DNA from: an uncultured Bacteroidales bacterium | GTDB lineage: Bacteria; Bacteroidota; Bacteroidia; Bacteroidales; UBA3824 | DNA: 64,000 nt | Assembly (NCBI GenBank): GCA_937877455.1 | Contig: CALFIU010000189.1 | Span: 28,852 to 92,851, forward strand | Direction: 5' to 3' | Shown: positions 1-63,999 of the stretch, piece after piece | How positions within the stretch are numbered: the first letter of the stretch is position 1 | Layout of the letters: the number at the start of each line of letters is the position of its first letter | Translations under genes and position numbers: made by a program | Notes under the pieces: model-generated | What the model saw: only the letters and a program-made list of their open reading frames with translations | What the model was told of the DNA's origin: nothing | Databases searched by the model: none

Positions 1-2
1 AA

Positions 3-14951: not shown

Positions 14952-15025
14952 TCACTCTCCGAATTATCTTGCATTATTTATCTGTCAATATTGATGTGAT
15001 AGCCTTCTCGAACTACCACACCAAT

Positions 15026-15054
15026 ATAGTACCATATATAATCCGCATTGTCAA
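15026..15054 (-). promoter_or_regulatory. Sigma-A type promoter TTGACA-N17-TACTAT (TG-extended)
   Basis: The minus strand reads TTGACAATGCGGATTATATATGGTACTAT, preceded by GCAAAATAATAA. Confidence 0.55.
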
Positions 15055-15305
15055 TTATTATTTTGCAATGCTTTTAAATTTGTGAGCATCCATACCAACG
15101 GCTGAACGGATTCGCTAATAGAATATTCTTTGCCTCTTAATTCAATGGCAAATCCACCATCGCCAAATACATTATCAGATGTGAAAGAGCCAATAAATCT
15201 TGTTGTTCCTAATAATAATGTCAATGCACATTCAGCGCTTTCCGCTTCAGATATATATATAAACACTTCATGTTCACTGAACTTAATGACAATGTACTTT
15301 TTCAT
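15051..15305 (-). CDS. Hypothetical protein
   Basis: Co-oriented ORF. Confidence 0.4.
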   Translation of the reverse strand: MKKYIVIKFSEHEVFIYISEAESAECALTLLLGTTRFIGSFTSDNVFGDGGFAIELRGKEYSISESVQPLVWMLTNLKALQNNN

Positions 15306-15306
15306 C

Positions 15307-15516
15307 TTATCCCCTTGTGTACCTTACTTTACTGCCATCATCAAATTCGACTATCACATTGTCAGGTATGCCATCTTTTGCCGATGTATAAGGTCTGTAT
15401 TTCGCCGAAATCGTCTTGATAATTTTTCTATGTGCATGTTCACATTCTTTTGCTTTCTTTTCATCGTTAAACGAAGTACCGCATACCTCACATTGATATA
15501 ATTTTAATTCTTTCAT
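15307..15516 (-). CDS. Small zinc-ribbon protein
   Basis: CEVCG ... CEHAH metal-binding pattern, 69 aa. Confidence 0.45.
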   Translation of the reverse strand: MKELKLYQCEVCGTSFNDEKKAKECEHAHRKIIKTISAKYRPYTSAKDGIPDNVIVEFDDGSKVRYTRG

Positions 15517-18500
15517 ATGTTGTTAATCCTTTTATATGATGTGATCCAGAGTTCGCTTGTGCCTTCAACTGGAACGAATTCGCCATCTTCATTCCTTTTC
15601 ATCTTTGGTTTATTACGACATCCCGAAATCATAACAATGTCGCCCTCTTTGAGTTTATTCTTATTGAATGTTTTCCTGTCGATTTTGCAATCAAGTGTAT
15701 TGCCATGTTTTAAAGAATACATTTTTAACTTCGGAGCATATTTGGTGTCAAGTGATACCACGCAAGCCATACCACTATATCTATCGTCAATGATATCGAC
15801 ATATCCAAGATGGTCTATCTGCGCTTGAACTTTATCTTTTAATGTTCTCTTCGGACAATGAATTTCGTTTGCAACCAACTGTAATAGTTTTCTGCTATTT
15901 AGTTTTGTGAACATCTTTAGTGATTCTTTTTCTGCACAGCTTCTAATTAAATCCATATTAAATCCTTCTCTTTCGAGAATATCTTTTTTAATTTGAAGTC
16001 TGCCATTAAAATAATCAAAGTATTCATATAGTTTCATCAAGTAATTGGCATCACCAAATTCATTGAAGAAATCAAGCTCAATAAGGATTTTTAATTGTCT
16101 CGAATTCAAAGTTGTCTTGTTAGTCAAATCGTAAAGCAAATCAATAAATGAATTATATTTATTATTTCTAAGTTCATACATTTCATCTGCTACTTGCGTA
16201 TTCATATATTTGATAGAAGATATACCTTTGAATATTTCATTGGTTTCTTTTGAAATGCTATATTTCGCCGAAGAATGCCTAAACTTAATTGGCTTTAATG
16301 CAATTTTGAAAAACTTTAATTCATTGGTTAATTTTAGTGTTCTTTCATTATCGTCTGCGTAATAGTTAAGGACAGTTGTATAATACTCAAGCGGATAATG
16401 CGATTTCAAATACGCACCATATAAACTATCATATGCATAAGATAGCGAATGCGATGCATTGAAAGAATATCGTGCAGCCTGTTCAACAACAGTCCACGTT
16501 TCAATAAATCCGTCCTCTGTGCCTACACGTTTCATCCACCCATGTAATAGTCTATCTTTCAGGTCTGCAAGTTCCTTTTCTTTAAATTTCTTTTTAGCTA
16601 TCTTCTTAATGATATCGTATGATCCTGTTTCCTCTATACCAAGCCAAATCAAATATTTCATAATTAGTTCCTGATAAATCATTCTGTGTTTCCCTTCGAC
16701 AAGAATGTTATCAAGCTCCTCAATGCCTGTAGTGTATGGCTTTCTGTCTATGAAATCATCAAGCAAGCTTGCGCATCCGGGGCGAATAATGGCTACAAAT
16801 GCAGACATTTCAGATACGCTTTGCGGTTTATATTTTTTCACAAGCCCTGTCGCAAAATCACTATCAGCCTGATTGATTGTACATGTTAATCCGTTCGCAT
16901 AGATATCGAATGTTTTGTCATCAAGAAGTTTATCAATCTCTCGGATAGTAGGAATTGGTATCCCAGCAAGCTCACAGGTATCTTTTATTATCGCCCATAC
17001 AGTGACTGATAAATAATCGTTCTTTAAATATTTATATTTATCACAGTTGTATCCATCTAAAAGACAGCATATTTTTTCTTTCGTATGTATGAGTCCAAGT
17101 TCTTTTCGAATTGGTTTGTTATATAACAACATGCTACATGGACTCTCGGATATGCTTTCAACAACGCCGACAAATCTTTGACTTTCCTCGATGAGTTTCT
17201 TCCATTTTGGATTATCACGATAACTATCTAAGTCTTTGGCTACATCGTCATATTCCGATATATTCTTGCCAATACCTTTACAATAAACCCTGAACGCAGA
17301 TGAGTCTTGTAATGGTTTCCAAGCTATCATCCATGCGCAGTTTTCAGCGCCAAGCAAATCTTCTGTGGCTTTGATAAATGGCGTTCTATCGGCGGTATTA
17401 AGATCAATGTCTGGAAGGCTGCGCGTACCAAGTATTCTTTCAACAGACATAAATCTTGTCGGAAATAATGTTATTGGAGCATCAACACGATCTATATCTG
17501 TTAATCCAAGCATCTTTGTAATATAGAAACTCGGCGCTGAACCTCTTCCAGTGTTGGTTAATTTGCCACCATACTTCTCTTGACCATCTTTTACCACGTT
17601 ATAGTCAATTAAGAAATAGTTTGCCATGTTGGTTTTCTCTACGATGTCAACCTCATATCGGATTGCATCGAGATATTTACCCCATTCATGTTTTGGAATA
17701 TTTCTTCTTTCCTCTAACCATTTATTATTGATTATGTCCTTTAAATCCTTTATCGGATTTTGTGATACAGATGGAAGTTTAATGTCATCATTTATAATTG
17801 TAATTTCAGAGCAATCGTCAAATACAAGAGTGTTGTATAGTAGTTCTTCTGCTTGCTTTCTGTTGAATATTCCTTGCTTTACATATCGGTTGATTATTGT
17901 TTTATCATCAGGATAATCCAATATCATCCCATCTTCTTCTGGATATTTTCTATCTTTTCCTTTAAGAAAAATATCTCTATATTTTGCATCATCTGGAAGA
18001 ATGTAATGGCTGTCATTAGCATGAATCATGGCAATTCCCGATGCCTTGCTGAACTCATACATTGCAGTATTTACTTGTTTTTGAAAATCCGTATTATGTG
18101 CTTGCATTTCAAGAAAGAAATGTTTTCCAAAATGCCGATTTAATGCAAGAAGAAGCTCTCTGTCCTGCCAAATTCCTGCAACACAAGCTGAAGTTACTAT
18201 GAAATTATTTGGATTAAGCGAAAATAACAGTTCATCGTCTATCCTTGGGCGATAATAAAAACCAGTATCATGAGCTTCAGACATGATATCATTCAGTTGC
18301 ATTACACCGTCATTATTCAGCGCAATAATGATGATATGTCTATTACTTCTATCCCTTCCATATACAGGATTGCCATCTTTATCTTCACCAGTTTGAATTT
18401 TAGCTATACGGTCATGAACATAATATGCTTCTGTACCATAAATCATTTTCAAGCCGTATCGTTTTGAGCAGTCAAGCCAAGTGAATATATCACCTTGCAC

Positions 18501-24110: not shown

Positions 24111-24641
24111 TCAGACCGTATACCAGTCACGAGCCAGTAAATCAGTCTGACTTGCAAGCCACGGAATAACCGTACCATCAACAGTTTTCATAGCAATATA
24201 TGCACCATATGGAACTAACCCATCATCATTTGTACAATATTTTGCAGCCGCTTTTGTGCAAGGCGCGTAATTGCCTTTTGGAACAAAGTAAATAAACATG
24301 TTTTTCCCGTTCCATCCTTTACGCGCAACTCGTTTACCCCTCTGGATAAGCTGCAACGCCGCATCGAAACCAAATTCTAAAATCTTATCAGATGAAAATT
24401 CAGCGCCAACAATATAAATATCTTTGTTATTCTTATGTGCCAGATTTTCATCGTATGTCTTATCAACGTATTTAACTTTGGTATGACCGCGAGAATTAAA
24501 GATAATCTCAATGCTATCATCGGGCATATGAATATGTAAATTTACAGCAAGGTTTTCTGAATCCTTATATCTCTCGTACTGGTTCATAAATTCATCTTTT
24601 GTCATGCGTGGAATTTCTGGAATATTAACTGTTTTCTCCAT
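24111..24641 (-). CDS. DUF2829 (Tad2-like) domain protein with N-terminal extension
   Basis: The C-terminal half RGKRVARKGWNGKNMFIYFV ... IPWLASQTDLLARDWYTV matches the DUF2829 pattern. Confidence 0.65.
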   Translation of the reverse strand: MEKTVNIPEIPRMTKDEFMNQYERYKDSENLAVNLHIHMPDDSIEIIFNSRGHTKVKYVDKTYDENLAHKNNKDIYIVGAEFSSDKILEFGFDAALQLIQRGKRVARKGWNGKNMFIYFVPKGNYAPCTKAAAKYCTNDDGLVPYGAYIAMKTVDGTVIPWLASQTDLLARDWYTV

Positions 24642-25023: not shown

Positions 25024-25965
25024 TTAATGCGCATATTCGTCTGCTTCATGCAAAGCAACAACTTCATTAAATACTTTATCGCCAAGCTGTATCTTTAATC
25101 TCTTTTCGACACTCTTGCTCATCTTCCATTCACGATAAGGATGCATATGGAAATAAATCAAAGTCGCAACATGGATAATATCATCAACATGATAATCCAT
25201 ATTGTAAAGATAAAAGATTGAGTCATAAGCTCCTACACAATGATGTTGATAGTAATGGCAATTTCCATCTCTTTCACCTTTAGAATTTACAGCAGTCATT
25301 GTGAATATCTTTCCTTCATCGTGCAAAAGCGCCGCCAAATGAAGCAACTCATTTTTGGGATATTTCTCAAGGATATATTTTCCTGCTTTTCTACAATGCT
25401 CGCCAAGCGTTAAACTATGATGATGATTTCCCTGATCCATATAATCAATGCCTGTTGCGTGGTTATAAAGTGTTGCTAATGTATAATCGGCAAAATCTTC
25501 TCTCTGGCAACTAAACATGATATCTACATCATCCCATCCTTCAGTTTTGTGCGGAGGCTGAAAATTCATGTACATGCGCTTGATTACACTATCAGGAACT
25601 TTTCTTTCCCTTTTCTGATTATTAAGCAAACACACATAGTATGGTGCTACAACTAAAACACACGATTTATGGCAAGGAATATTTTTAAGTTCCTGAAGAA
25701 ACCCCATGCGCCTTTTTCTATTGAGATTTGTGGCATCGTAAATGACATCTTTACCATTCCTTAAATCTTCTTTGATGCGCCTATGTAATTCAGTGAAAAG
25801 CTGCGCGTTTGCTTCTTTTGAATTTTCATTTACATCACCAAACATTTCTTCACGAAGATCATCAGAAGAATGAAGCTGATAATATTTACTCAACGTTCTT
25901 GCATATGTAGACTTACCACTTCCGGGCAAACCTACAAGCATCATTAAAGTTGGTATATTGTTCAT
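25024..25965 (-). CDS. Polynucleotide kinase (P-loop) fused to an HD phosphohydrolase domain
   Basis: N-terminus LVGLPGSGKST...YDATNL (T4 Pnk / AAA_33-like kinase). C-terminus HHHS...LLHDEGK (HD). Confidence 0.75.
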   Translation of the reverse strand: MNNIPTLMMLVGLPGSGKSTYARTLSKYYQLHSSDDLREEMFGDVNENSKEANAQLFTELHRRIKEDLRNGKDVIYDATNLNRKRRMGFLQELKNIPCHKSCVLVVAPYYVCLLNNQKRERKVPDSVIKRMYMNFQPPHKTEGWDDVDIMFSCQREDFADYTLATLYNHATGIDYMDQGNHHHSLTLGEHCRKAGKYILEKYPKNELLHLAALLHDEGKIFTMTAVNSKGERDGNCHYYQHHCVGAYDSIFYLYNMDYHVDDIIHVATLIYFHMHPYREWKMSKSVEKRLKIQLGDKVFNEVVALHEADEYAH

Positions 25966-27332
25966 ATGGCATCCTCCACGATCAATTCTTCCGCTTCTTC
26001 CATGTCTGGCATGTCAGATGTATCTTTGATAATTCCTTCAAGACATTTAAAACTGAAGTTTTTATGTTTGTAAGCTGTAAAACTCGGTCTGTTATCAATT
26101 CTGATAACAACGCCTTCGCGAACATGTGTCTTACCAATCGGGTCTGCGCCATCATAGTATTTTTCGACACGCGCCATAAGATCATCCCATGTAGTAAAGA
26201 TAAACTTTTCAAATGTAGGAACACACTTAGCGCCCATCTTTTCGGCTTCAATTTGTACCTGTTCCCAAGGAAGTTCAACCATAATGCCATCTTCATTCAT
26301 CATTATCATGCGATAAACATATGCATCATTTTCTCCGACTTCACATCCGTAAGAGAACACGGTTTCTTTCCCGTACTGCTTCTGGAAATCTTTATCTTTC
26401 ACGAGCTTATTTGAACATTTGCCCATGATAGTCTGATTTCCTTCTGTATAGCCAACGACCTCATAGAACACTTCGCATCCTTTAGGAAGTTTGTCTTTGA
26501 AGAAATCATGATATTTCTGTCTGAATTTGTTACTTCCGTAGTAGCCACCGTCATACTCGCGCAATGTGGTTCTTCTTGTGCCAGTGATGTATTGATACTT
26601 TCTTGTCTGTTTATCGCGAAGTTTAAACAGTTTTTTCAGAATTGGGTTTCTTCTCTTCTTTGTAATCTGAAGTGTGTTGGCTGTCCTCTGGCTCGTGCCA
26701 TGCATCTTTAATGTGATGTAGCACGTATCGCCTTCTCTAAATGCGTTCTGATTAAATGCAAGCTGCTGTGTATCAATATGCTCAACGAATAAAGGATAAC
26801 TAACCGTTTCTTTTAATTCTTTCTTGTTTACCTTGTACTTGCTACCGCCAGAAGAATTGTTTCTCTTTCTCTTCGGAATATACTTTCTGCAAATCTCGTG
26901 ACCGTCAATTACAGAAATCATATCGCCATCTCTCAGTGTAGTTACATCGACATACTTTGAAAGCGTTTCAATCGGTAAAACTAATCCGTCAGACTTTTCG
27001 CCACGAAGTTTTAATGCCGTGATATTTCTTTTCTCGGCATCCATGTATCCACCGACATTTATAACATCAACGCCATCTTTCTGAATAATTTGCTTTCCTT
27101 CAATCTGTGCATCGTCAAGTTCGGAAACAGGAACGTATTTCTTGACAAGATTATTGTCTGTTGCAAATTCTTCACTCAGCTGCCCATCGACAGGGAAATA
27201 AATAACGCGCTGTCCTTCATGATAATTCAAATCAACAATAACATTATTCCCAAACACGCTCGTTGTGAGGAGTCTGTCTGCATTCGAGTGTTTATGTAAT
27301 TCCTTTAACGTAGTGACATATGCGAAATACAT
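25962..27332 (-). CDS. RNA ligase, DRB0094/DraRnl-like (N-terminal OB domain plus adenylyltransferase)
   Basis: N-terminus HSNADRLLTTSVFGNNVIV (OB module). Motif I is ITLKMHGTS (KxHG, as in the Rnl2/Rnl5 clade). Confidence 0.75.
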   Translation of the reverse strand: MYFAYVTTLKELHKHSNADRLLTTSVFGNNVIVDLNYHEGQRVIYFPVDGQLSEEFATDNNLVKKYVPVSELDDAQIEGKQIIQKDGVDVINVGGYMDAEKRNITALKLRGEKSDGLVLPIETLSKYVDVTTLRDGDMISVIDGHEICRKYIPKRKRNNSSGGSKYKVNKKELKETVSYPLFVEHIDTQQLAFNQNAFREGDTCYITLKMHGTSQRTANTLQITKKRRNPILKKLFKLRDKQTRKYQYITGTRRTTLREYDGGYYGSNKFRQKYHDFFKDKLPKGCEVFYEVVGYTEGNQTIMGKCSNKLVKDKDFQKQYGKETVFSYGCEVGENDAYVYRMIMMNEDGIMVELPWEQVQIEAEKMGAKCVPTFEKFIFTTWDDLMARVEKYYDGADPIGKTHVREGVVIRIDNRPSFTAYKHKNFSFKCLEGIIKDTSDMPDMEEAEELIVEDAI

Positions 27333-27589
27333 TATTTCTTCTTTCCTTTCTTCTGCTTCTTCCTATTTGGTTTCTTTTTAGGCTTTTCATTAACCTTTTT
27401 AACTTTCTCTTTCTTGTTGTGTTTCGTGTTATCTTGCATTATTTCAATATTGTCAATCTTCAGTCTTTTTGGTTTCGTTTCAAAATAACAATTCTTGCAA
27501 ATATCTAATTCGCAGTTTCTATCAGTTGTAAATCTGTAAACATGACTCATAACATTATAGCATTTTGGACAAATCATCATTTTGCACAT
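27332..27589 (-). CDS. Zinc-ribbon protein with lysine-rich tail
   Basis: CPKC...CKNC followed by a KKKPNRKKQKKGKKK tail. Confidence 0.5.
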   Translation of the reverse strand: MCKMMICPKCYNVMSHVYRFTTDRNCELDICKNCYFETKPKRLKIDNIEIMQDNTKHNKKEKVKKVNEKPKKKPNRKKQKKGKKK

Positions 27590-27604: not shown

Positions 27605-27653
27605 ATTATAACACATTTATGGAATTATGCAAGAGTTATTTTGTATTATTTCT
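27605..27653 (-). promoter_or_regulatory. Promoter TTGCAT-N16-TATAAT (TG-extended) preceded by the AATAATACAAAATAA motif
   Basis: The minus strand reads GAAATAATACAAAATAACTCTTGCATAATTCCATAAATGTGTTATAAT. Confidence 0.6.
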
Positions 27654-28354
27654 AAATTATCCTTATGTATGTACAGTTTTTCTGTAGACTTAAACTGATT
27701 GTTCTTATTAACATCAAGTATTCGTCTTATTTCTTTCTGCCATATACATACGAAATCATCTGGAGCATTCAGTTCTGAAATATATACCACATGATCTTTG
27801 CTTATCTGCCTCATATATTCCCAAAATTGTGCAGTATTAAAATCGCCATTAGCATATTTTGTCGTATTCTCATATGGTGGATCGGCATAAACAGCGCATC
27901 CGTCTGGAAGTAAAACATCTCTATAATCCAAACAAGTAAACTCTGCGTCCATTAGCGTCCTCATTTTGGACGCAAGCGACCGTTTACCTCTTAGTGCATA
28001 ATTAACTTGTGCCTTATCTCTTGCATAACCACCAAACCATTTACCACCAAAACTACATGCAAATCCGACAAATCCTGTTAGCGCAGGATCATCGTCTTTA
28101 TGTTCTTTTATGTAATGATATTGTTCTTCCGTAACTGTTTCAGGTAAATCATATCCGTTCTGTAATGCCTGAAATAAAGCAATCAAATACGGCTGATTAT
28201 CGTTGCATATAATCCTATCAAACCCTTTAACCTTTGCTTCTATGTTGCAAGCCCCACAAAAGAGGGAAACCAAGGTTCTACTTAGTGATACCCCCCCCTC
28301 TACGTGCAAGGCAATATCCTTTGCAATCCTTGATTTTCCACCTTGATACCTCAT
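27617..28354 (-). CDS. dam: DNA adenine methyltransferase (Dam-like, D12 class)
   Basis: N-terminal YQGGKSRIAK, FCGACN (FxGxG-like), and catalytic YADPPY. Confidence 0.85.
   Translation of the reverse strand: MRYQGGKSRIAKDIALHVEGGVSLSRTLVSLFCGACNIEAKVKGFDRIICNDNQPYLIALFQALQNGYDLPETVTEEQYHYIKEHKDDDPALTGFVGFACSFGGKWFGGYARDKAQVNYALRGKRSLASKMRTLMDAEFTCLDYRDVLLPDGCAVYADPPYENTTKYANGDFNTAQFWEYMRQISKDHVVYISELNAPDDFVCIWQKEIRRILDVNKNNQFKSTEKLYIHKDNLEIIQNNSCIIP
28291..28298 (-). repeat. G8 homopolymer (coding strand) inside dam, codons 20-22
   Basis: C8 on the plus strand. Encodes part of HVEGGVS. Confidence 0.95.
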
Positions 28355-28358: not shown

Positions 28359-28366
28359 CCCCCCCC
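28359..28366 (-). repeat. G8 homopolymer 4 nt upstream of the dam ATG (RBS position)
   Basis: The minus strand reads AGTAGGGGGGGGTACAATG. Confidence 0.95.
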
Positions 28367-30563: not shown

Positions 30564-32066
30564 TTATTTTGGATTATTTATTTTTAATCCGATTTCGTTA
30601 TATAATTCATCTACTGCACTTTTCTTTCGCTGTAGACAATCATATATCTTCTCATCAATAGTTTCACGAGCTTGCAAAATAATGTATGTACATTTATTTG
30701 TTTGCCCTATTCTATGTATTCTGTCCTGACTCTGTTTAAATTCTTCATAGCTGAAAGACAATGAATAATAAACATTGTATGTACAGTTTACAAACGTTAA
30801 TCCTTTTCCAAGTAATTGAGGATGCGTAAATAAATATTTGATCTTACCATTCCTGAAATCTCTGATAATATCATCTCTGCCTTTGGTTTTTGATGTAAGT
30901 CCTACACCGCCAAACTGCTCGGCAAGTGAATCTATTTCATATTGGAACTGACACCAGATGATTACCTGTTTATCGCCGATTTCGTTTAACACTTCCGATA
31001 AAATTGCTGTTTTATTGGAGAGCATTTTGACTATTTCTGCCCCTTTATTGACTTTCGGATAAACGAAACCAGACACAATTTCTCGCAGTTTCATCAATTT
31101 CGCGGTAAACTCGAATTTTGACCACTCGTTGATGTGAGATTGGATGTCATTTATCATTTCATCATAGTATTTGCGCTGTTCTTTTGAAAGATCAAATCTT
31201 CTTACTTGGAAAATCTTATCTGGCAAGTCAACACAATCTTCTTTCTTTAAAAAGATAGACTGTTCACCGAGGCGCAGATTATATCTTTCTTTATCTTCGT
31301 CAGTCTGAAACCAAACATGAGGATTAGCCATATCCTGATGGAAATATCGCGCAAGAAAACCATAATAGTTATTGCCGAATATCTCGTTGTTTACGAACTT
31401 CATCTGCGGAAAAATCTCACCATTAAAATTTGGACATGGACATCCAGAAAGAACAAATCTATGCGGAATAATAGAAATCATTTCAAGTACCATACTTGTT
31501 ATCTGACTACCCATGTTCTTCATGCAAGAGCTTTCATCTACAATCATGCAATCAAATCCAGCTACACGAATTTCATTCTTCAAAATTTTGTAGCTTTCAT
31601 AATTCATAACGTAAATATCTACATCTTCATTCAGCGCATCAATGCGTCCATCGCGAGAATTTGACCAACAGTTAATGATTTTCTTTTCAGGATAAAACTT
31701 ATTGCAGTCATCAACCCACGCAGTCTCAATAACACTTAGCGGACAAAGAACAAGCGTCTTGTTATAATGCGATGCAACCTCTAACCCCATCACGGTTTTT
31801 CCTGTACCAGTATCGGCAAAGATACCATAGCATCCTGTGTTGAGTGCTTCGTTTACAATATCTTTTTGATAACCGCGAAGAAAGGATGAAAGTTCATATT
31901 CGATTTTCTTTGGTTTTTCAATACTTACATTTTCTGCGACCAGTCCATATTTCTGAAGTGTCGGAAGGGCATGGTCAGGGAAAATCCATTTGCCATCCTT
32001 AAACTTGCGTCCTTCTATCGTTCTTATGTATGGTATCTGTTCAACAGGGATTGTCAGTTCGATCAA
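30564..32066 (-). CDS. SNF2-family helicase/ATPase
   Basis: Motifs ADTGTGKT (I), DESS (II) and QSQDRIHRIGQ (VI). Confidence 0.85.
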   Translation of the reverse strand: MIELTIPVEQIPYIRTIEGRKFKDGKWIFPDHALPTLQKYGLVAENVSIEKPKKIEYELSSFLRGYQKDIVNEALNTGCYGIFADTGTGKTVMGLEVASHYNKTLVLCPLSVIETAWVDDCNKFYPEKKIINCWSNSRDGRIDALNEDVDIYVMNYESYKILKNEIRVAGFDCMIVDESSCMKNMGSQITSMVLEMISIIPHRFVLSGCPCPNFNGEIFPQMKFVNNEIFGNNYYGFLARYFHQDMANPHVWFQTDEDKERYNLRLGEQSIFLKKEDCVDLPDKIFQVRRFDLSKEQRKYYDEMINDIQSHINEWSKFEFTAKLMKLREIVSGFVYPKVNKGAEIVKMLSNKTAILSEVLNEIGDKQVIIWCQFQYEIDSLAEQFGGVGLTSKTKGRDDIIRDFRNGKIKYLFTHPQLLGKGLTFVNCTYNVYYSLSFSYEEFKQSQDRIHRIGQTNKCTYIILQARETIDEKIYDCLQRKKSAVDELYNEIGLKINNPK

Positions 32067-32576: not shown

Positions 32577-33309
32577 CTTTTACACCTAACCTTTCTTCCG
32601 CAATGCGCAGATATTCTTTATCAAGTTCTATTCCTAAAAATCTTCTGTTTGTATTTATACACGCAACACCTGTACTTCCAGAGCCACAACAGTTATCAAG
32701 AACTAAATCTCCTTCATTTGAATATGTTTTAATCAGCCATTCAAGAAGTGCAATCGGCTTTTGTGTTGGATGTAATCTACTGCTGTCACGAGGAAACGAT
32801 AGAATACTTAAAGGATTTCTTCTGCCATCTTCACTTTCAGAAAATGCTTCGTTTCTAAATCCATAATTTGTTGATAGGCTACTATTCTTTGTTCTCTTAT
32901 ACGGCTCTGAATACCAAAATTGTTTATTATATGTAGGTTTCTTTTTGTAAAATACTGCTATATCTTCATGGCATTTTAATGGTTTAACATTTGCGTTTAG
33001 GAAATCACATCCTCTTTGTTTATCCCATACAAGATTGTATCTCCACATTTTAGGATTTGATAAAAGCAATTTCGCCGTAAACATACCATCGCAAAATAGA
33101 ATTATTGCGCCATTATCTTTGATTATTCTTTTGTAATGCACCCATAATTCATCAAACGGTATCAAACAATCCCATGTGTTTCTTGTGGAAGAATATGGTA
33201 AATCACATAAAACCAAATCAATGCTTTTATCGGGGAGATTACCCATCAGAGATAGGCAATCCCCCCCCCACAAAGATATTTGTTTATTATTATTATTATT
33301 ATCTTGCAT
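32557..33309 (-). CDS. DNA methyltransferase (N6_N4 type, beta class)
   Basis: CDLPY catalytic motif and HPTQKP...VLDNCCGSGST SAM motif. Contains a G9 tract. Confidence 0.85.
   Translation of the reverse strand: MQDNNNNNKQISLWGGDCLSLMGNLPDKSIDLVLCDLPYSSTRNTWDCLIPFDELWVHYKRIIKDNGAIILFCDGMFTAKLLLSNPKMWRYNLVWDKQRGCDFLNANVKPLKCHEDIAVFYKKKPTYNKQFWYSEPYKRTKNSSLSTNYGFRNEAFSESEDGRRNPLSILSFPRDSSRLHPTQKPIALLEWLIKTYSNEGDLVLDNCCGSGSTGVACINTNRRFLGIELDKEYLRIAEERLGVKDALQTC
33261..33269 (-). repeat. G9 homopolymer (coding strand) at codons 14-16 of methyltransferase 32557-33309
   Basis: C9 on the plus strand. Encodes SLWGGDC and follows an (AAT)n asparagine run. Confidence 0.95.
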
Positions 33310-41986: not shown

Positions 41987-42047
41987 AAAGTCCTTTCTAC
42001 TTTTTTTATGCGCCGCGCCAAAACACGGCTCAATGAATTATTCTGCA

Positions 42048-46566: not shown

Positions 46567-46599
46567 AAAAATGGCGCAATATATTTCAACTGCGCCATT
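46567..46599 (-). terminator. Hairpin plus U-run between the conserved motif and the yqeY-like gene RBS
   Basis: The minus strand reads AATGGCGCAGTTGAAATATATTGCGCCATTTTT. Confidence 0.55.
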
Positions 46600-46611
46600 A
46601 TCTTGCATTAT

Positions 46612-47268
46612 TTATTCATCCTTCTTCTCAGCTTTTTCTAATTCATCAAGAAGTCCTTTGAAAGACGCTTCAAGTTCTGTTGATGCTTGTTTTGAAACAT
46701 CATTGATTGCACGTTTATACGCTTCTGTCATTTCACGGATACGATCTTCACGCTTTTTGTTTTCAATACGCCGTGTCTCTTGCTTAATAGATGCAAGTTT
46801 CATTCTTTCTTCTTTAACTTTCTTTAGTTCTTCTTCTCTCTTTTTCTTTGTCGCGTCAACCTTTGTAAGTGCATATTTGATAATTTTGTTGTAAACAGAT
46901 GATCCAGTTCCGATAATATCCATATCTGCAAACATCTTCTTAACAACACAAATCAGAATACCAGTTTCAAGACTGAATACATCACCTTCATTCAGATGCG
47001 CAACTTCTTTCGTTCCGTCTGCAAACTCTACGAATACTGTTTTGTCATTCGGATTAGACACGTTGATAATGTCTGGCATTAAATTTGTATGACCGATAAT
47101 GCCGTTATCCTTATTAAGATATCCAAGGAATAGATCACCATCGTCCGCGAATAGCGTGCTGCCGACAGTATTTTGTTCCATCATGTTACGGAGAAATTCA
47201 ATGAAATCATTTTCATTTTTACCGTTGTAAAGCCCACATTCAACTACACTTAGTTCATTTTCGCCCAT
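46612..47268 (-). CDS. Hypothetical protein with C-terminal coiled coil
   Basis: Co-oriented ORF with a K/E-rich tail. Confidence 0.45.
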   Translation of the reverse strand: MGENELSVVECGLYNGKNENDFIEFLRNMMEQNTVGSTLFADDGDLFLGYLNKDNGIIGHTNLMPDIINVSNPNDKTVFVEFADGTKEVAHLNEGDVFSLETGILICVVKKMFADMDIIGTGSSVYNKIIKYALTKVDATKKKREEELKKVKEERMKLASIKQETRRIENKKREDRIREMTEAYKRAINDVSKQASTELEASFKGLLDELEKAEKKDE

Positions 47269-49004: not shown

Positions 49005-49194
49005 TAAATATTCACTGACGAGTTAATATATTTTTTTTTAAAGTGTAAAGACCTTTACAATAAACTTTACACGTATTTTGTTTAGCGCTTAAAAGTAAAC
49101 CAAATGACAACATACACACTGAAACACAAAGCACAAATCTATCTTTAGGAGGAGATACACCATGTAGCGCTAAATCAGGTTTTAGAAGTTTGAA

Positions 49195-49320
49195 CGGCGA
49201 GGACAGGACTCGAACCTGCGACCTACGGCGTTTAAGGCATAATATTAAAATTGCTGTGTGTATCTTAACAAGATACGTTGTTTGTTTTTACGTTGCTCTA
49301 ACCGACTGGGCTACCTCGCC
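49195..49320 (-). tRNA. tRNA body (Asn-like GTT stem-loop) with extra sequence on both sides of the anticodon hairpin
   Basis: Has the GGCGAGG/CCTCGCC acceptor, U8A9, D arm GCCC-AGTCGGTTA-GAGC and T arm GCAGG-TTCGAGT-CCTGT. The centre is A/C-rich linker, then GTATC-TTGTTAA-GATAC, then ACACAGCAAU plus 26 nt. Confidence 0.6.
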
Positions 49321-49387
49321 GACATAGTGGATATGGCATGGAATAATCCAAGGTAAGAACCCATATCCACTTTACATATGAGTGTTC

Positions 49388-51053: not shown

Positions 51054-51061
51054 AAATATAT

Positions 51062-51178
51062 AGCGCACGATTGGATTCGAACCAATGACACGATTTTTTG
51101 TTTGTTTAATTGCTGATTGCGATTATCACTAACCACGTTTAACAAGTTAAATTGCACTACCAACTGTGCTACGTGCGC
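51062..51178 (-). tRNA. tRNA body with ~50-nt insertion in the anticodon loop region
   Basis: Has the GCGCACG/CGTGCGC acceptor, U8A9, D arm GCAC-AGTTGGTA-GTGC and T arm ATTGG-TTCGAAT-CCAAT. The insert carries AU-CAGCAAU. Confidence 0.6.
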
Positions 51179-51193
51179 CATCCCTTTCGGGAA

Positions 51194-51349
51194 AAGCAGC
51201 GACAGGAATCGAACCTATGACTGCGGCTTGCCTCGGTAAATTTGCTGTATGTTTCTTTAATTCCCCAACTCTAACTCGTCTGTGCGGTTACTCTTGGTGG
51301 TAACAAGAAACATTTTTATGCCGCCGTGATCCCACTTCACTACGCCACT
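51194..51349 (-). tRNA. tRNA body with ~85-nt insertion inside the anticodon loop
   Basis: Reads AGTGGCG-UA-GTGA-AGTGGGA-TCAC-G-GCGGC[92 nt]GCCGC-AGTC-ATAGG-TTCGATT-CCTGT-CGCTGCT-T. The insert holds the GTTTCTT...AAGAAAC helix and AU-ACAGCAA. Confidence 0.7.
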
Positions 51350-51352
51350 TCG

Positions 51353-51476
51353 CCCATCGTGAAGGATTCGAACCTTCCCCTCAAGTTTTCCAGACTTGTA
51401 ATTGATATGTAATATTGCTGCAAGCGCTTCACTAAACGCACAATCAAAAGATGTGCTACCGCTACACCAACGATGG
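51353..51476 (-). tRNA. tRNA body with ~53-nt insertion between the D arm and the anticodon arm
   Basis: Has the CCATCGT/ACGATGG acceptor, D arm GTGT-AGCGGTA-GCAC, anticodon arm CAAGT-CTGGAAA-ACTTG and T arm GAAGG-TTCGAAT-CCTTC. The insert holds the hairpin GCGTTT-AGTG-AAGCGC followed by UU-GCAGCAAU. Confidence 0.6.
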
Positions 51477-51666: not shown

Positions 51667-51732
51667 TTATCTTGCAATACCTATTATAGCATGCCGTTTA
51701 TGGTTTTGCAAGTGTTATTTTGTATTATTTCT
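51667..51732 (-). promoter_or_regulatory. Motif-bracketed promoter inside the RNA array: AATAATACAAAATAA-N3-TTGCAA-N17-TATAAT-N7-GCAAGATAA
   Basis: The minus strand reads GAAATAATACAAAATAACACTTGCAAAACCATAAACGGCATGCTATAATAGGTATTGCAAGATAA. Confidence 0.7.
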
Positions 51733-52042: not shown

Positions 52043-52092
52043 AGTGTACCACACGCGCAAATATTCGTCAAGCGTTTTTTTGCATTATTTTT
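52043..52092 (-). promoter_or_regulatory. Promoter of the tRNA/RNA array: AATAATGCAAAAAAA-N3-TTGACG-N17-TACACT (TG-extended)
   Basis: The minus strand reads AAAAATAATGCAAAAAAACGCTTGACGAATATTTGCGCGTGTGGTACACT. Confidence 0.65.
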
Positions 52093-55886: not shown

Positions 55887-56087
55887 TTACACTATCCGTG
55901 TTCGCGGTCAATATTTATTGCCCTCCCATGCTACTCACATTATTCTGTTTTCACGCAGTTAATCAAATATTTTACTCATGTGTTAATCAGCCCCACATGA
56001 AACCCGATTTCATCGGGATAGGTATTACTCCTTTTCTTTATTTTTTAAAATTAAATTATTTTGCATTATTTATATACCAACACTTAT

Positions 56088-59705: not shown

Positions 59706-59773
59706 TTATCTTGCATTTCTTATATTATAACATTGTCACTTTGGTATGTCAATATTTATCTTGTATTATCTAT
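59706..59773 (-). promoter_or_regulatory. Motif-bracketed promoter: GATAATACAAGATAA-N3-TTGACA-N17-TATAAT-N9-GCAAGATAA
   Basis: The minus strand reads ATAGATAATACAAGATAAATATTGACATACCAAAGTGACAATGTTATAATATAAGAAATGCAAGATAA. Confidence 0.7.
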
Positions 59774-60027: not shown

Positions 60028-60031
60028 TACC

Positions 60032-60833: not shown

Positions 60834-60915
60834 TTATTTCATCCTTTCTTAGTTTTCCAATATGTAGATTTTCTGTTTTTCTGATTCAAAAATTTCCAAT
60901 TCTTAAAAACTATGT

Positions 60916-61542: not shown

Positions 61543-61637
61543 GTTGATACCTCCTTATTTTCTTGTATTATTTATTATTTATAATGGAAGTTGCGCCGTG
61601 AAACGCAACCCCATCTTGAATATGTAAATAATGTTAT

Positions 61638-61937: not shown

Positions 61938-61974
61938 ATTTTGTTTTATCTTGTATTAGTTATATGTAATTATC

Positions 61975-61990: not shown

Positions 61991-62005
61991 TAATGATAAT
62001 TTAAA

Positions 62006-63001
62006 TTAAGATGCGGACACAAAAGGCATAAGAACCTTTTTCAATGTGGTTACATTCTGCTCGACAACGCCATATTGTTCCGCGAGAGCCATAATCTTTT
62101 TCGTATCTTCTGAATTCCTAACAGACATAATAAGCCTATCTGTTTCTTCCTGACCGACTTCTCTGACTACAAAATCATAAAACCCACGGAGATAAAGTGT
62201 CCTCGCGTTGATGTTAATATCAAGCTTATTCTTTATGTCACGATTAAAAATTCTACTGATATGTCCAGCCCAATACTCTGGTGGTCTTTCGTTAAATTCC
62301 TTTTCAAACTTCGCCCTTGTTGGAAATTTGAAATACGATCCACGATAGCTCATCATTAGATAACTGCCACGATGCGCAGGATATTCTTCCATGTGGTTTA
62401 TCTTGACCATCAATTCATATAATCTGTCTGATAATCGTATCTCGCGCCCTCTGACAATAGTAGTTTTCTTTTTGTGATTAACATCTCCTTCTTTAAGATT
62501 AACTATGTCTATAGCTTCAGGAAATCCCTCATAGAACATGCGGATAATCGCTTCTTGATAATCCGCGTACTCGTCTATCTGGCTATTCCTAATTCTTTCT
62601 ATGGCTTCTTCCATAGCATTTTTGTCAAATATCTGATCGCCATCAACAAATAAAGACATAACATTTCTGCCTTTAATTCTTTTATCATTACAAGGATTTT
62701 TAATCACCTCATAATTATCAATGTACCAGTTGAAAAAGTCACGAAGGATAGATAATAAAGTATCATATGTGCGATAGGAGATTTTGTATACTTTATTTGA
62801 ATAAGTTTTATTGCTGAATGTCTTTATCATTTCAGTGATCTCTTGTGATTCCATATCAACAAGAGGTTTTCCTATCTTTTGCTCGTAAGCGTATAATTCA
62901 GGTCTATCTATTTGACCGCGAATTTTTCGTGCCGTTGTTTCGGGTCTTGTCTTAAAATATTCATCCAATAATCGATCTGTATCGAATGTTCCCCTTGCCA
63001 T
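62006..63001 (-). CDS. Hypothetical protein (start reassigned to MARGTFD)
   Basis: An AAGGAGG RBS lies 9 nt upstream of the internal ATG. Confidence 0.5.
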   Translation of the reverse strand: MARGTFDTDRLLDEYFKTRPETTARKIRGQIDRPELYAYEQKIGKPLVDMESQEITEMIKTFSNKTYSNKVYKISYRTYDTLLSILRDFFNWYIDNYEVIKNPCNDKRIKGRNVMSLFVDGDQIFDKNAMEEAIERIRNSQIDEYADYQEAIIRMFYEGFPEAIDIVNLKEGDVNHKKKTTIVRGREIRLSDRLYELMVKINHMEEYPAHRGSYLMMSYRGSYFKFPTRAKFEKEFNERPPEYWAGHISRIFNRDIKNKLDININARTLYLRGFYDFVVREVGQEETDRLIMSVRNSEDTKKIMALAEQYGVVEQNVTTLKKVLMPFVSAS

Positions 63002-63022
63002 ACATAACACCTCCTTTATATA

Positions 63023-63078
63023 TATGTACCATAAATTCATGAAGATGTCAATGTATATAATTATCTTGTGTTATTTCA
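63023..63078 (-). promoter_or_regulatory. Promoter TTGACA-N17-TACATA (TG-extended) with an upstream AATAACACAAGATAA motif
   Basis: The minus strand reads GAAATAACACAAGATAATTATATACATTGACATCTTCATGAATTTATGGTACATA. Confidence 0.6.
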
Positions 63079-63546
63079 AGTGTCAAGAACAGGAAACTGC
63101 GACTGCATAGCACGACAAATTCTCATCAACATGTCAACGTCCTTAATCTCGCCCATATAATACCTTAAATTTTCCTTCTGCATTGTGGTCAATTGCTCAA
63201 TGAGTAACGTACTCGGAGCAGTTAACCCATACTTTTTATGATCCCAAATTTCCACATGGCAAGGCAGATTTCTTTTGTTCATCTTTGTTGTCATGGGAAT
63301 GACATTAAGTGTTGTGCTATACTGATTGTTCTTGTCATTAGAAATGACAAACACAGGTCTATGACCACTCTGTATACTGCCGTTTCCTTCAAGATTTGCC
63401 ATCCAGATATCACCACATTTAACAGTGCGACTTTCAGCGCCAATGAACTCGACATTGTTCTGTTCATATTTAATGAAGAATGTCATAGGCTGCGCAGATT
63501 TTCCATATTGTTTTGTCATTGTCCTTCTGCTTGTTGCCGTGTTCAT
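63076..63546 (-). CDS. MazF/PemK-family endoribonuclease toxin-like protein with N-terminal extension
   Basis: Contains GDIWMANLEGNGSIQSGHRPVFVISND...LNVIPMTTK. Confidence 0.7.
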   Translation of the reverse strand: MNTATSRRTMTKQYGKSAQPMTFFIKYEQNNVEFIGAESRTVKCGDIWMANLEGNGSIQSGHRPVFVISNDKNNQYSTTLNVIPMTTKMNKRNLPCHVEIWDHKKYGLTAPSTLLIEQLTTMQKENLRYYMGEIKDVDMLMRICRAMQSQFPVLDT

Positions 63547-63570
63547 TGAGCGCCTCCAGTCTACGTGCTA

Positions 63571-63873
63571 TTAAAAATCAGTTATCGGTTGTGTTATCCC
63601 ATCTTTAGGTTTTCTTTTCACAAAGAAATCGTATCCCGGTTTAATCAACACAAGTTTTCCGCAATTCGGGAGATCATAACCAAAATAAGGTTTATTTTTG
63701 TTTTTGTTTAGCTTAATTCTCATCATTCTGCCAACGGCATTGACGATTTCAAACGTGCGATCATCAGATTTATTAGTGTATTTGATTGTGCCATCCTTCT
63801 TCAAATCGCCAGTGCCGATAAATAAACCGTTTGTTACGTGGTTTATTCCTATATAGTATCTTTTCCAGTTCAT
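63571..63873 (-). CDS. Hypothetical protein
   Basis: Co-oriented ORF. Confidence 0.45.
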   Translation of the reverse strand: MNWKRYYIGINHVTNGLFIGTGDLKKDGTIKYTNKSDDRTFEIVNAVGRMMRIKLNKNKNKPYFGYDLPNCGKLVLIKPGYDFFVKRKPKDGITQPITDF

Positions 63874-63927
63874 TATTTACCTCTTATGAATGTGTACCAC
63901 TTTTACGGCGGTACACTTCATCTTGTA

Positions 63928-63999
63928 TTACATATCTGCTTCTTCAGGCTCGTTCATGAAGTCAGAAGGAATGCCATCATATTTTTCAATATCGGATTT
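63928..63999 (-). CDS. 3' end of an ORF entering from beyond the window
   Basis: Open frame ...KSDIEKYDGIPSDFMNEPEEADM ending at TAA (63928-63930). Confidence 0.4.
   Translation of the reverse strand, partial: KSDIEKYDGIPSDFMNEPEEADM

Follow-up and report, generated by a model that had tools for sequence, protein, structure and literature searches.

A strand-locked, asymmetric 18-nt word at promoters and gene borders of a large temperate phage of Clostridia: a possible dispersed operator

The window, that is, the whole 64,000-nucleotide stretch of DNA analysed here, belongs to a large temperate phage (>100 kb) of gut or rumen Clostridia; among cultured phages, those closest to it are phiCD211 and c-st, both large temperate phages of Clostridium. 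Its temperate gene set comprises an integrase, a Tn916-type excisionase, a MazF/PemK-like toxin and a second tyrosine recombinase, and the phage also encodes a Sak single-strand annealing protein. The gene strand is the minus strand of the window, and the word described below, ATAAATAATRCAARATAA, is read in that sense. It serves genes of replication and nucleotide metabolism and not those of the late class.

The initial annotation had reported more than 20 copies of this word, all oriented with the minus-strand genes. We counted 25 copies, every one of them on the gene strand, with about 0.6 expected by chance. Every coordinate listed earlier was correct, those at 63061 and 63918 being weaker copies (scores 19.2 and 17.3), and we add copies at 10152, 27429, 30564 and 44504, weak ones at 45389 and 15058 and a half-degenerate one at 8979-8996. 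A search for TTATCTTGCATTATTTAT allowing up to three mismatches returned 23 matches, on the plus strand only, compared with 0.59 ± 0.70 (maximum 3) in sequence shuffles. A weight matrix made from the motif sites themselves and then scanned over both strands gave 25 sites with scores of 17-28 on the gene (minus) strand and never exceeded 11 on the opposite strand. The word is exactly 18 nt long: its flanks are not conserved, and the information content is at background directly beyond the 18 positions. It lies mostly between genes, 18 of the 25 copies not being wholly within an ORF in a region that is 88% coding (p about 1e-10). Together with the comparison with relatives, the shuffle and location statistics rule out a compositional artefact of AT-rich spacers, the scenario that the initial annotation had named as a refutation.

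Position 11 is an invariant C (25/25) and position 10 a purine in 24 copies. Half-sites AATAA/GATAA occupy positions 4-8 and 14-18, one helical turn apart, with a genome-specific core between them. All three frames of the word contain stop codons, and the stop of the upstream gene often lies inside it. In ORF-internal copies a T2-to-G change opens the reading frame; because the change preserves these copies, selection acts on the word itself. No motif was seen in the opposite-strand gene block (window positions 1-4700, and 10 kb of the relative in L185). The copies fall into three classes, namely upstream of a -35 element, from the end of a -10 element over the start site, and solitary. Those at promoters, with the promoters themselves, are as follows.

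8979-8996, minus strand: downstream copy, half-degenerate (ATaagcgtTACAAAATAA), abutting the -10 of the promoter at 8995-9025; its ortholog in L017 (19506) is a full copy
15026-15054, minus strand: sigma-A-type promoter of thyX, TTGACA-N17-TACTAT
15058-15075, minus strand: upstream copy, degenerate (aaaagCATTGCAAAATAA, score 9.4), 3 nt from the thyX -35
27636-27653, minus strand: upstream copy, 3 nt from the -35 of the promoter at 27605-27632 (TTGCAT-N16-TATAAT)
34349-34366, minus strand: downstream copy, positions 1-2 being the final two bases of the -10; methyltransferase ATG 20 nt on
34365-34393, minus strand: consensus sigma-A promoter TTGACA-N17-TATAAT (12/12)
34397-34414, minus strand: upstream copy, 3 nt from the -35, within the 3'-terminal part of the ORF for the CCA-adding enzyme, whose frame is kept open by T2 to G
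39942-39959, minus strand: downstream copy sharing 2 nt with the -10, followed by a 132-nt leader
39958-39986, minus strand: sigma-A promoter TTGACT-N17-TACAAT
39990-40007, minus strand: upstream copy, 3 nt from the -35
51667-51684, minus strand: downstream copy sharing 2 nt with the -10; heads a tRNA cluster, no ribosome-binding site
51683-51711, minus strand: sigma-A promoter of the tRNA genes, TTGCAA-N17-TATAAT
51715-51732, minus strand: upstream copy, 3 nt from the -35
52075-52092, minus strand: upstream copy, 3 nt from the -35 of the promoter at 52043-52071 (tRNA-Gln, tRNA-Lys)
59706-59723, minus strand: downstream copy abutting the -10; ATG 21 nt on
59724-59752, minus strand: consensus sigma-A promoter TTGACA-N17-TATAAT (12/12)
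59756-59773, minus strand: upstream copy, 3 nt from the -35; stop of the upstream gene at motif positions 2-4
63061-63078, minus strand: upstream copy (score 19.2), 9 nt from the -35 of the promoter at 63023-63051; overlaps the stop of the MazF-like gene

An upstream copy is thus present at 8 of about 10 sigma-A promoters of the window, separated from the -35 by 3 nt at seven of them and by 9 nt at the eighth, and a downstream copy starts at the end of the -10 and covers the start site at five. The four pairs described earlier as bracketing promoters 48-50 bp apart hold up, with start-to-start spacings of 48, 48, 48 and 50 bp, a 3-nt gap to the -35, and GCAAGATAA starting 7 nt after the -10 at three sites and 9 nt after it at one. 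So do the single upstream copies at four further promoters (27605-27632, 52043-52071, 63023-63051 with the 9-nt gap, and 15026-15054 with the degenerate copy). Upstream copies therefore lie at about -57 to -40 and downstream copies at about -9 to +9. The upstream copies at 27636 and 51715 have about 30 nt in common, including the -35. Where promoters are paired with two copies, the predicted start site comes only after the 5' half of the downstream copy. This half matches the consensus above chance in four of the five downstream copies, so that recognition there must be on DNA.

As a rule, the solitary copies follow a stop codon and precede the next ribosome-binding site.

10152-10169, minus strand: score 22.3, in an NrdG-like ORF; dUTPase start 135 nt downstream
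14964-14981, minus strand: perfect consensus; thyX ATG 12 nt on, promoter and hairpin leader upstream, same layout in L017 (13132-13222)
23449-23466, minus strand: Sak stop at motif positions 2-4; next ATG 20 nt on
27429-27446, minus strand: in an 85-aa ORF; RNA ligase gene 96 nt downstream
30564-30581, minus strand: SNF2 helicase stop at motif positions 16-18; next ATG 26 nt on
33299-33316, minus strand: gives a TAATG stop-start overlap between two N6-methyltransferase genes
38893-38910, minus strand: perfect consensus, in a fragmented C5-methyltransferase region
42038-42055, minus strand: followed by a GC-rich hairpin (-12.6 kcal/mol) and the ribosome-binding site of an HNH endonuclease gene
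44504-44521, minus strand: in an 83-aa ORF; next start 50 nt downstream
45389-45406, minus strand: weak copy (AGAAATGACGCAAGATGA, score 14.0) within an ORF
46598-46615, minus strand: perfect consensus, followed by a terminator-like hairpin (-14.2 kcal/mol) and a ribosome-binding site
56056-56073, minus strand: upstream stop codon 14 nt before
61558-61575, minus strand: after a hairpin (-16.6 kcal/mol); AAGGAGG 1 nt on
61946-61963, minus strand: terminator ACCGC..GCGGT then TTTTG (-17.1 kcal/mol) 10 nt before
63918-63935, minus strand: weak copy (score 17.3), followed by a hairpin (-14.1 kcal/mol) and a ribosome-binding site

The GC-rich hairpins noted previously after 46598, 42038 and 63918 and the terminators ahead of 61946 and 61558, which are terminator-like hairpins, were all recovered with the folding energies given above. 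The suggestion that the ATG of the word itself serves as start codon stood in part: it is plausible at 33309, because of the TAATG overlap, but 38903 is only a mechanical ORF start in a fragmented-looking C5-methyltransferase gene.

Related phages have the same layout with other cores: TGCAAG in the window, TACAAA in L012 and L017, and GACGGA in L023. An upstream copy is present at 11 of 11 promoters of the closest relative, two of them inverted at unchanged distance from the -35, and at both promoters of L023, and non-promoter copies are all co-oriented with genes, including one before an opposite-strand gene of L012. A remoter clade carries AATAATTAATAA in 87 forward and no reverse copies, one per 1.5 kb, about 70% of them 0-6 nt ahead of a Shine-Dalgarno sequence, which would suit a role in RNA or translation too. 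At the RNA ligase upstream site (27429, in an ORF), the L017 and L023 orthologs each carry the core of their own genome. The word is thus uniform inside each genome and divergent across genomes, which points to a co-evolving trans-acting factor. Sites have been gained or lost between relatives, twice beside indels, and L017 has a 1.1-kb insertion and no motif at the position of 23449; solitary copies persist from genome to genome instead of decaying.

The initial annotation had offered three readings without choosing among them, and its interpretation is partly supported: an operator fits best, a conserved leader fails for about half of the copies, and a resemblance to T4 late promoters is not supported. 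The asymmetric word is genome-specific, keeps to the transcribed strand and holds fixed positions around host-type promoters, at which copies can be inverted in a relative. On this sequence pattern we tentatively favour, at somewhat less than an even chance, a putative dispersed asymmetric operator that would occlude promoters and block elongation in the manner of L5 stoperators or P1 C1 operators. The half-site layout could accommodate, on one face of the helix, either a monomer with two DNA-binding domains or a head-to-tail dimer. Given the positions of the copies at promoters, protein bound upstream and downstream would clamp or occlude the sigma-A polymerase site, where the orientation of the word need not matter. 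Solitary copies, near gene 3' ends or between genes and always along transcription, may act as polar roadblocks to elongating polymerase. Inverted promoter copies beside co-oriented non-promoter copies would follow from occlusion that works in either orientation and an elongation block that is polar. Against repression, the upstream copy lies strictly beside the -35, not over it, and resembles an UP element in position and A-richness, so that activation would suit as well.

The word might instead be a phage-specific, -35-independent initiator-type promoter spanning about -9 to +9, with its start at the purine of position 10, read by an unrecognised phage polymerase, a sigma-like factor or a polymerase-retargeting protein; host-type promoters would be placed for a common start base, and upstream copies would be tandem second promoters. 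We consider this unlikely, even though position 10 falls on the +1 predicted for the flanking sigma-A promoters, solitary copies lie 0-12 nt ahead of Shine-Dalgarno sequences, and downstream copies hold GCAAGATAA perfectly while their 5' half degenerates where the sigma-A -10 replaces it. Genome-specific cores would also be in keeping with a phage polymerase or sigma factor that co-evolves with them. Immediately upstream of the copies at 61946 and 61558 stand terminator-like hairpins, and no sigma-A promoter intervenes ahead of the following gene; these copies hence look promoter-like, and a roadblock there would be redundant. Compact AT-rich promoters are known from T4 late transcription and from the non-canonical polymerases of jumbo phages. 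T4-type late promoters (TATAAATA) depend on gp55, lack a -35 and lie close to gene starts. The window word is likewise compact, AT-rich, without a -35 and near gene starts; however, just 9 of 25 copies have the leading T that completes TATAAATA, conservation runs on for another 10 nt downstream, the genes served are not late, and no gp55 or gp33 homologue was found. Nor was an RNA polymerase, sigma factor or sigma-like protein found among about 100 window ORFs, and no RNA polymerase or sigma-like protein is annotated within phiCD211 50-131.7 kb. Inverted copies at equal distance from the -35 make no sense for a promoter, which also leaves the near-universal adjacency to -35 elements unexplained; the would-be -10 part in L023, AATAAG, would be unusable for host sigma-A; at one copy per 1.5 kb, the motif of the remoter clade is dense for promoters; and in two genomes the start of an evident promoter is about 35-40 nt upstream of the thyX copy. 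In two genomes that thyX copy also keeps a constant distance to the ribosome-binding site, not to the promoter, as would be expected if the word acted at the RNA level, serving as a conserved signal in leaders or between cistrons (the target of a translational regulator that binds RNA sequence-specifically, an endoribonuclease processing site or an AU-rich enhancer before the ribosome-binding site), with upstream copies as by-products. About 10 of the 25 window copies lie 0-12 nt ahead of a Shine-Dalgarno sequence, as do about 70% in the AATAATTAATAA clade, and the strict strand lock, the three-frame stops and the phage's MazF/PemK-like endoribonuclease would fit as well. A precedent exists in the 'start-associated sequences' (SAS) of Cluster K mycobacteriophages, of unknown function (PMC3203893), which are asymmetric repeats in one orientation just ahead of gene starts (PMC12699233). 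Both words often include the upstream stop codon and are confined to the non-structural half of the genome, but SAS include the Shine-Dalgarno core and end up 3-7 nt from the start codon, whereas the window word is found ahead of the ribosome-binding site, as well as at promoters, before tRNA genes and in ORFs. Action in RNA seems to us rather improbable, as it fails for about half the copies: those upstream of the -35 (at fixed spacing, at 8 of 10 promoters in the window and, two of them inverted, at all 11 in the relative), those before tRNA genes (51667, 52075) and those inside ORFs 50-135 nt from the next start (10152, 27429, 44504). It also fails for copies with a hairpin between them and the ribosome-binding site. 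The 5' half of the word would be untranscribed at paired promoters, and in the remoter clade the motif is almost wholly upstream of the predicted start.

No dedicated factor would be needed if upstream copies were UP-element or curved-DNA enhancers for the host alpha subunit and downstream and solitary copies favourable AT-rich discriminator or leader sequences, uniform by descent from one promoter cassette, with solitary copies arising by recombination between the flanking direct repeats. UP elements and upstream curved DNA lie beside the -35 of strong bacterial and phage early promoters, and the upstream copy is exactly in that position, A-rich and tolerated in both orientations; its 3' half prefers ACAAAATAA, close to the proximal UP subsite, AAAAAARNR. 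The segment common to 27636 and 51715, sites gained or lost beside indels and the Sak protein would fit such a history. Mobile promoter cassettes of T4-type phages (PeSL) were reportedly described by Arbiol, Comeau and Krisch in 2010, and resemble the window arrangement as repeated regulatory cassettes at early-region gene borders that could bring about modular shuffling; the window motif, in contrast, has no stem-loop, its cassette spacers are unrelated, and orthologous solitary copies are conserved. An invariant C11 and sharp borders without shared flanks are not expected from AT-richness or gene-conversion tracts, the purine positions and genome-specific core differ from UP elements, many copies have no promoter downstream, and the cores shift in concert between genomes, even at an orthologous site within an ORF. 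We find this account doubtful, and the least probable of those weighed here.

The operator reading has its closest counterpart in the immunity-repressor sites of Cluster A mycobacteriophages. In L5, asymmetric 13-mers number 20-30 and follow the direction of transcription, some at promoters and others in the short gaps between genes (PMC9283540, PMC6550527), and Cluster A stoperators and repressors have genome-specific motifs that differ at syntenic sites (PMC6550527), a pattern that the RNA ligase site of the window, L017 and L023 matches. As in L5 (gp71), Bxb1 and TipsytheTRex, a temperate phage has a short asymmetric word in 20-30 copies at promoters and between genes, with orientation tied to transcription (PMC9283540, PMC6550527). 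The window word differs in being 18 nt and AT-rich rather than 13 nt and GC-rich, in its Clostridium-type Firmicute host and phage size of >100 kb, and in bracketing promoters at fixed -57 to -40 and -9 to +9; its copies are so far confined to an early, replication and accessory block, whereas L5 stoperators lie in both arms. P1 has 22 dispersed asymmetric 17-bp C1 operators that control many scattered operons of this large plasmid prophage (PMC8546580), and the window shares plasmid-prophage-like accessories with it (a toxin module and a second recombinase), but P1 operators lie at promoters and not between cistrons, the window motif does not resemble ATTGCTCTAATAAATTT, and no C1-like protein was detected. 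In about 100 window ORFs, Pfam and PHROG scans turned up no repressor homologue, only an excisionase-type HTH. The factor reading the 18-mer as an operator would be a single sequence-specific DNA-binding protein, probably encoded by the temperate phage and probably serving as its immunity or shut-off repressor; stopped at its solitary sites, polymerase would no longer read through into the replication, nucleotide-metabolism and accessory genes, which would thereby be silenced.

The dispersed 18-mer reads ATAAATAATRCAARATAA on the gene strand. Allowing up to three mismatches, we found 23 matches, all on the same strand, against 0.59 expected from shuffled sequences, and a weight matrix returned 25 gene-strand sites scoring 17-28 with nothing above 11 on the other strand. 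The word is asymmetric, not palindromic, and over the 25 copies its borders are sharp: the information content is 0.65-2.5 bits at all 18 positions and drops to background level on either side. C11, A12 and A15 never vary, and 24 of 25 copies have a purine at position 10. The word consists of two AATAA/GATAA half-sites in direct orientation, 10 bp apart with a variable core between them, and contains TAA in all three frames. Whereas 88% of the region is coding, 18 of the 25 copies are not wholly within an ORF (p ~1e-10). The initial annotation had named a compositional artefact as the outcome that would undo the motif; the shuffles, the 25:0 strand bias and the sharp borders exclude it. Its coordinates all proved correct on re-checking, as did the 48-50 bp spacing of paired copies and the hairpins before or after particular copies, and four good copies were missing from its list (10152, 27429, 30564 and 44504). 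Rfam has no RNA family at the motif, and likenesses to the Fur, CodY and DnaA boxes, which we take to be partial matches only, were set aside.

Thirteen copies flank promoters and about 14 are solitary. An upstream copy is present at eight of the roughly ten recognisable sigma-A-type promoters on the gene strand, these promoters being called as consensus matches (two of them 12/12); simple promoter and terminator scans gave the same counts as shuffles and were uninformative. The copies that define the arrangement are the following.

Copies of the 18-mer by position relative to promoters and genes (window coordinates)
34397, 39990, 51715, 59756, 27636 and 52075, minus strand: upstream copies ending 3 nt before the -35
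15058, minus strand: degenerate upstream copy with the same 3-nt gap to the -35
63061, minus strand: upstream copy with a 9-nt gap to the -35
34349, 39942 and 51667, minus strand: downstream copies whose first bases are the last two of the -10
59706 and 8979-8996 (half-degenerate), minus strand: downstream copies directly after the -10
42038, 46598 and 63918: solitary copies with a hairpin before the ribosome-binding site
10152, 27429 and 44504: solitary copies inside ORFs, 50-135 nt from the next start, in which a T2-to-G change keeps the frame open

Within the downstream copies GCAAGATAA begins at about +1 or +2; these copies match the word perfectly in their 3' half and more loosely in their 5' half, which precedes the start site. 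Most solitary copies occupy the gap between a gene's stop codon and the following gene's ribosome-binding site, often with the upstream gene's stop inside the motif and an ATG 8-26 nt downstream. This distance to the ATG holds for about ten copies; for the others it is 44-180 nt, or no ORF follows. The motif contains no Shine-Dalgarno sequence, and for two sets of promoter-flanking copies the genes served are tRNA genes, which lack a ribosome-binding site altogether. The opposite-strand block (window 1-4700 and 10 kb of the closest relative) is free of copies, so that in the regions compared the motif is confined to the non-structural part, in a single orientation.

In window 4736-64000 the minus strand carries nearly all genes, among them those for an integrase and a Tn916-type excisionase, enzymes of nucleotide metabolism (NrdD/NrdG, ThyX, dUTPase and guanylate kinase) and replication proteins (PolIII alpha subunit, DnaB, DnaG and a Sak annealing protein). 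The window also codes for an RNA repair set (RNA ligase, kinase/HD, CCA-adding enzyme and RlaP), several DNA methyltransferases, HNH and GIY-YIG endonucleases, a Tad2-like protein, a MazF/PemK-like toxin, a second tyrosine recombinase and five ordinary tRNA genes. A search of INPHARED found no near-identical phage. The nearest cultured relatives by PolIII alpha are the large, temperate Clostridium phages phiCD211/phiCDIF1296T and c-st (~52% identity), and IMG/VR holds a large family of related contigs of 80-200 kb. The closest of these, IMGVR_UViG_3300011008_000067 and 3300010998_000021, have 84% PolIII identity and ~75% nucleotide identity and are syntenic with window 27345-3433. The gene content and these relatives identify the window, as far as sequence can tell, as belonging to a large, temperate, siphovirus-like phage whose hosts are low-GC anaerobic Firmicutes.

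Several other features of the window were recorded. The MazF/PemK-like gene (63076-63546, minus strand) is preceded by a small ORF, a possible antitoxin, and followed by the second, divergent tyrosine recombinase (62006-63040, minus strand); together these genes look like a plasmid-prophage maintenance module. On the plus strand, an IS21 IstB-like ATPase fragment, a 24/48-nt tandem repeat, a reverse transcriptase and a tail-fibre-like gene (36-653, 678-836, 944-1873 and 1755-2573) carry no motif copies; the reverse transcriptase and tail-fibre-like genes may together make up a diversity-generating retroelement at the margin of that opposite-strand block, and the IstB-like gene used as a search probe returned unrelated contigs only. 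The Tad2-like anti-Thoeris domain protein and the RNA repair set (24111-24641, 25024-27332 and 34390-36721) point to counter-defence against tRNA-cleaving systems. Four more tRNA genes (49194-49321, 51061-51179, 51193-51350 and 51352-51476, minus strand) bear insertions of 30-85 nt, much shorter than group I introns, in or adjoining the anticodon loop. ARAGORN in intron mode reads them as Leu-taa, Ala-tgc, Ala-agc and His-gtg, the Rfam tRNA model matches two of them (117 and 126 nt), and a box RCAYACAGCAA is repeated within and between them. Simple-sequence repeats lie in or directly before DNA methyltransferase genes: (CAAGA) x 9.4 at 39031-39077, in a C5-methyltransferase apparently split into fragments, and G-tracts of at least 8 bases (28291-28298, 28359-28366, 33262-33269, 38468-38475 and 38677-38684; nine Gs at 33262) at the 5' end of an N6 methyltransferase, before and within the start of a D12 (Dam-like) methyltransferase, and among the C5 fragments. 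Repeats of this kind suggest that the phage's methyltransferases are phase-variable.

We compared the 64 kb of phage genome with relatives available as 10-23 kb excerpts. The closest relative carries an upstream copy, ATAAATAATACAAAATAA, 2-4 nt from the -35 at all 11 sigma-A promoters found, including those of small early units encoding SAM-lyase-like and ArdC-like anti-restriction proteins. Two of these upstream copies are inverted at an unchanged distance to the -35. Solitary copies again precede ribosome-binding sites, and one, in the relative's locus L012, is co-oriented with a gene on the opposite strand. Locus L023 (70% PolIII identity) repeats the layout of the window with another core, ATAAATAAGACGGAATAA: copies precede the -35, overlap the -10 or stand alone. 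A remoter, very AT-rich clade (L042, L044, L045, L046, L048, L071 and L078) uses AATAATTAATAA, with 87 forward and 0 reverse copies, ~70% of them 0-6 nt before a Shine-Dalgarno sequence and others upstream of and overlapping promoters; the copies in this clade often stand just 3' of repeated homing-endonuclease-like ORFs ending ...YEVEITD. L079 appears to use ATAAACATAAT. Motif sites have been gained and lost among relatives. At an orthologous site upstream of the RNA ligase gene, within a small ORF, the window has TGAAATAATGCAAGATAA, the relative's locus L017 has AGAAATAATACAAAATAA and L023 has ACAAATAAGACGGAATAA, so that each genome's own consensus appears there (cores TGCAAG, TACAAA and GACGGA).

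The exact 18-mer has multi-copy matches in IMG/VR only in the two close relatives, and a pattern scan for the exact motif with an adjoining -35 likewise returned two close contigs only; GTDB genomes gave chance single matches, none homologous to the window. Intergenic k-mer counts of phiCD211 revealed no comparable repeated word. A Clostridia MAG contig from rabbit gut (CANQTQ010000004.1; locus L096, 5613-5690) has TTGAAA-N17-TATAAT followed by AAATATTGCAAGAAAA in the same register; it shows no nucleotide-level similarity to the window by blastn, and the match may be due to chance or to wider use of the word. Other repeated elements accompany the relatives' promoters. A conserved leader box, AGTAAATGATATACAC, which differs from the 18-mer, lies downstream of the closest relative's early promoters, and at early and tRNA promoters in L012 and L208 the -10 is followed, over a distance that varies, by (C)AAGTAAATGATATACAC or AGTAAATCACATACAGC. 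Long intergenic stretches in the early region (L012 4600-9840) hold 5-8 copies of a palindrome, GTTTTYRAAAAC, before promoters, with one similar stretch at window 60834-60915; these look like a second, symmetric binding-site system, for another regulator or as iterons.

Because the word is uniform within each genome, has sharp borders and changes in concert, even at the coding orthologous site, these comparisons argue for its being read by a co-evolving trans-acting factor. Recognition must take place at least partly on DNA, since upstream copies are independent of downstream RNA features and tolerate inversion, downstream copies have untranscribed 5' halves, and copies precede tRNA genes. We tentatively favour, as a serious possibility and by analogy, an operator- or stoperator-like site of a regulator. 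One protein could then account for all three copy classes: at promoters it would occlude the polymerase site or clamp it, in either orientation, and at solitary copies, which are always co-oriented, it might act as a polar roadblock to polymerase. The sequence of the upstream copy would fit activation and repression alike. Fast divergence of immunity specificity among relatives would be expected of an operator, and the phage being temperate, with plasmid-prophage-like accessories, is in line with it.

That the word is itself a promoter, read at the DNA level, we regard as unlikely. The purine at position 10 coincides with the predicted +1 of the flanking promoters, ribosome-binding sites follow closely, and two copies come after terminator-like hairpins with no other promoter; left unexplained are the inverted copies and the near-obligatory adjacency to a -35, the thyX copy lies ~35-40 nt downstream of an evident promoter's start, and the window ORFs scanned yielded no polymerase or sigma candidate, nor did the phiCD211 annotations over 50-131.7 kb. 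The stronger version, a complete initiator promoter independent of host sigma and serving a phage-encoded factor or polymerase, is a long shot; host- and phage-type promoters would share a start and transcripts would all be tagged 5'-GCAAGAUAA. If so, the tag could mark phage RNA as self, for example shielding it from the MazF-like RNase that the phage itself encodes or from a shut-off nuclease of the host. The T4-type late promoter (TATAAATA at the -10), to which the initial annotation had likened the 5' part of the motif, is not supported: the required T precedes only 9 of 25 copies, and L023 and the remoter clade depart further. Neither a gp55-type sigma nor a gp33 co-activator was found among the ORFs scanned of this partial genome, many of which have no family. 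Use of an internal -10 (AATAAT) in solitary copies by host sigma-A fails on L023, which has AATAAG, and on the lack of a -35 or TG extension. A MotA-box- or CII-like activator site for a downstream -10 was dismissed as well, the ribosome-binding site and ATG lying within 8-26 nt and no position downstream of the motif being conserved.

An RNA-level leader, processing or translation signal has a precedent in the start-associated sequences (SAS) of Cluster K (PMC3203893), likewise restricted to the non-structural part in one orientation. The SAS word, however, includes the Shine-Dalgarno core and nearly all its copies are 3-7 nt away from the start codon; neither is true of the 18-mer. We consider an RNA-level signal decidedly improbable. 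We hold it to be very improbable, too, that no dedicated factor is involved and the motif is a composite of an UP element, a leader and scars of recombination. The upstream copies do resemble UP elements, being A/T-rich at -40 to -60 and adjoining the -35 at eight of the ten promoters in the window and at all 11 of the closest relative. Alpha-CTD contacts alone do not explain the whole motif, given the invariant C11 and the ~14 copies with no promoter downstream, and neither AT-richness nor gene-conversion tracts nor an UP element contacted by a conserved subunit of the host polymerase would produce a uniform, sharply bordered word that changes in concert.

The operator or stoperator reading has its closest parallel in the repressors of Cluster A mycobacteriophages such as L5, which bind 20-30 asymmetric sites, operators and stoperators, oriented with transcription, with motifs that are subcluster-specific and differ at syntenic sites (PMC9283540, PMC6550527). 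The 18-mer shares with that system a short asymmetric word in at least 20 copies per genome (here 25), an orientation that tracks transcription (25:0 in the window, 87:0 in the related clade, and the opposite-strand gene of L012), a location in promoters and short intergenic spaces (here 13 promoter-flanking and ~14 solitary copies) and a consensus that varies among related phages, including the syntenic RNA-ligase site. L5-type sites are genome-wide, including the structural arm; of the opposite-strand block, the stretches covered here (window 1-4700 and 10 kb of the relative) contain none. L5-type sites are bound by an immunity repressor, a monomer with HTH and stoperator domains; Pfam and PHROG scans of ~100 window ORFs yielded no such protein and no other repressor candidate. 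Their elongation block is orientation-dependent, and a counterpart here is proposed by analogy. P1 has 22 dispersed asymmetric C1 operators (PMC8546580); the 18-mer is similarly dispersed and asymmetric but unrelated in sequence to these 17-bp C1-bound operators, which match ATTGCTCTAATAAATTT, and no C1-like protein was found in the window. As the L5, P1 and SAS words are all unrelated to it, the 18-mer is in no sequence-defined family; by behaviour it would belong, by analogy, with dispersed asymmetric phage regulatory sites. New are the host group, phages of Clostridia, the bracketing of host-type promoters at fixed positions (~-57 to -40 and ~-9 to +9), and a layout kept across the family with clade-specific words.

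Large temperate phages of the phiCD211/c-st type are common in metagenomes of gut and rumen Clostridia, and to our knowledge nothing is known of what silences these 100-160 kb genomes or times their expression. A word that is specific to each genome, sits at almost every promoter and at gene junctions, and changes in concert offers direct access to the control system. With the sequence as the sole input, it predicts immunity groups and flags promoters and transcription-unit borders for annotation, and the regulator could be nominated by asking which proteins diverge along with the motif. If the word is a promoter, a new transcription factor is to be discovered. Should the parallel with L5 prove right, stoperator-type silencing would reach beyond actinobacteriophages to phages of Firmicutes, which would suggest that it evolved more than once.
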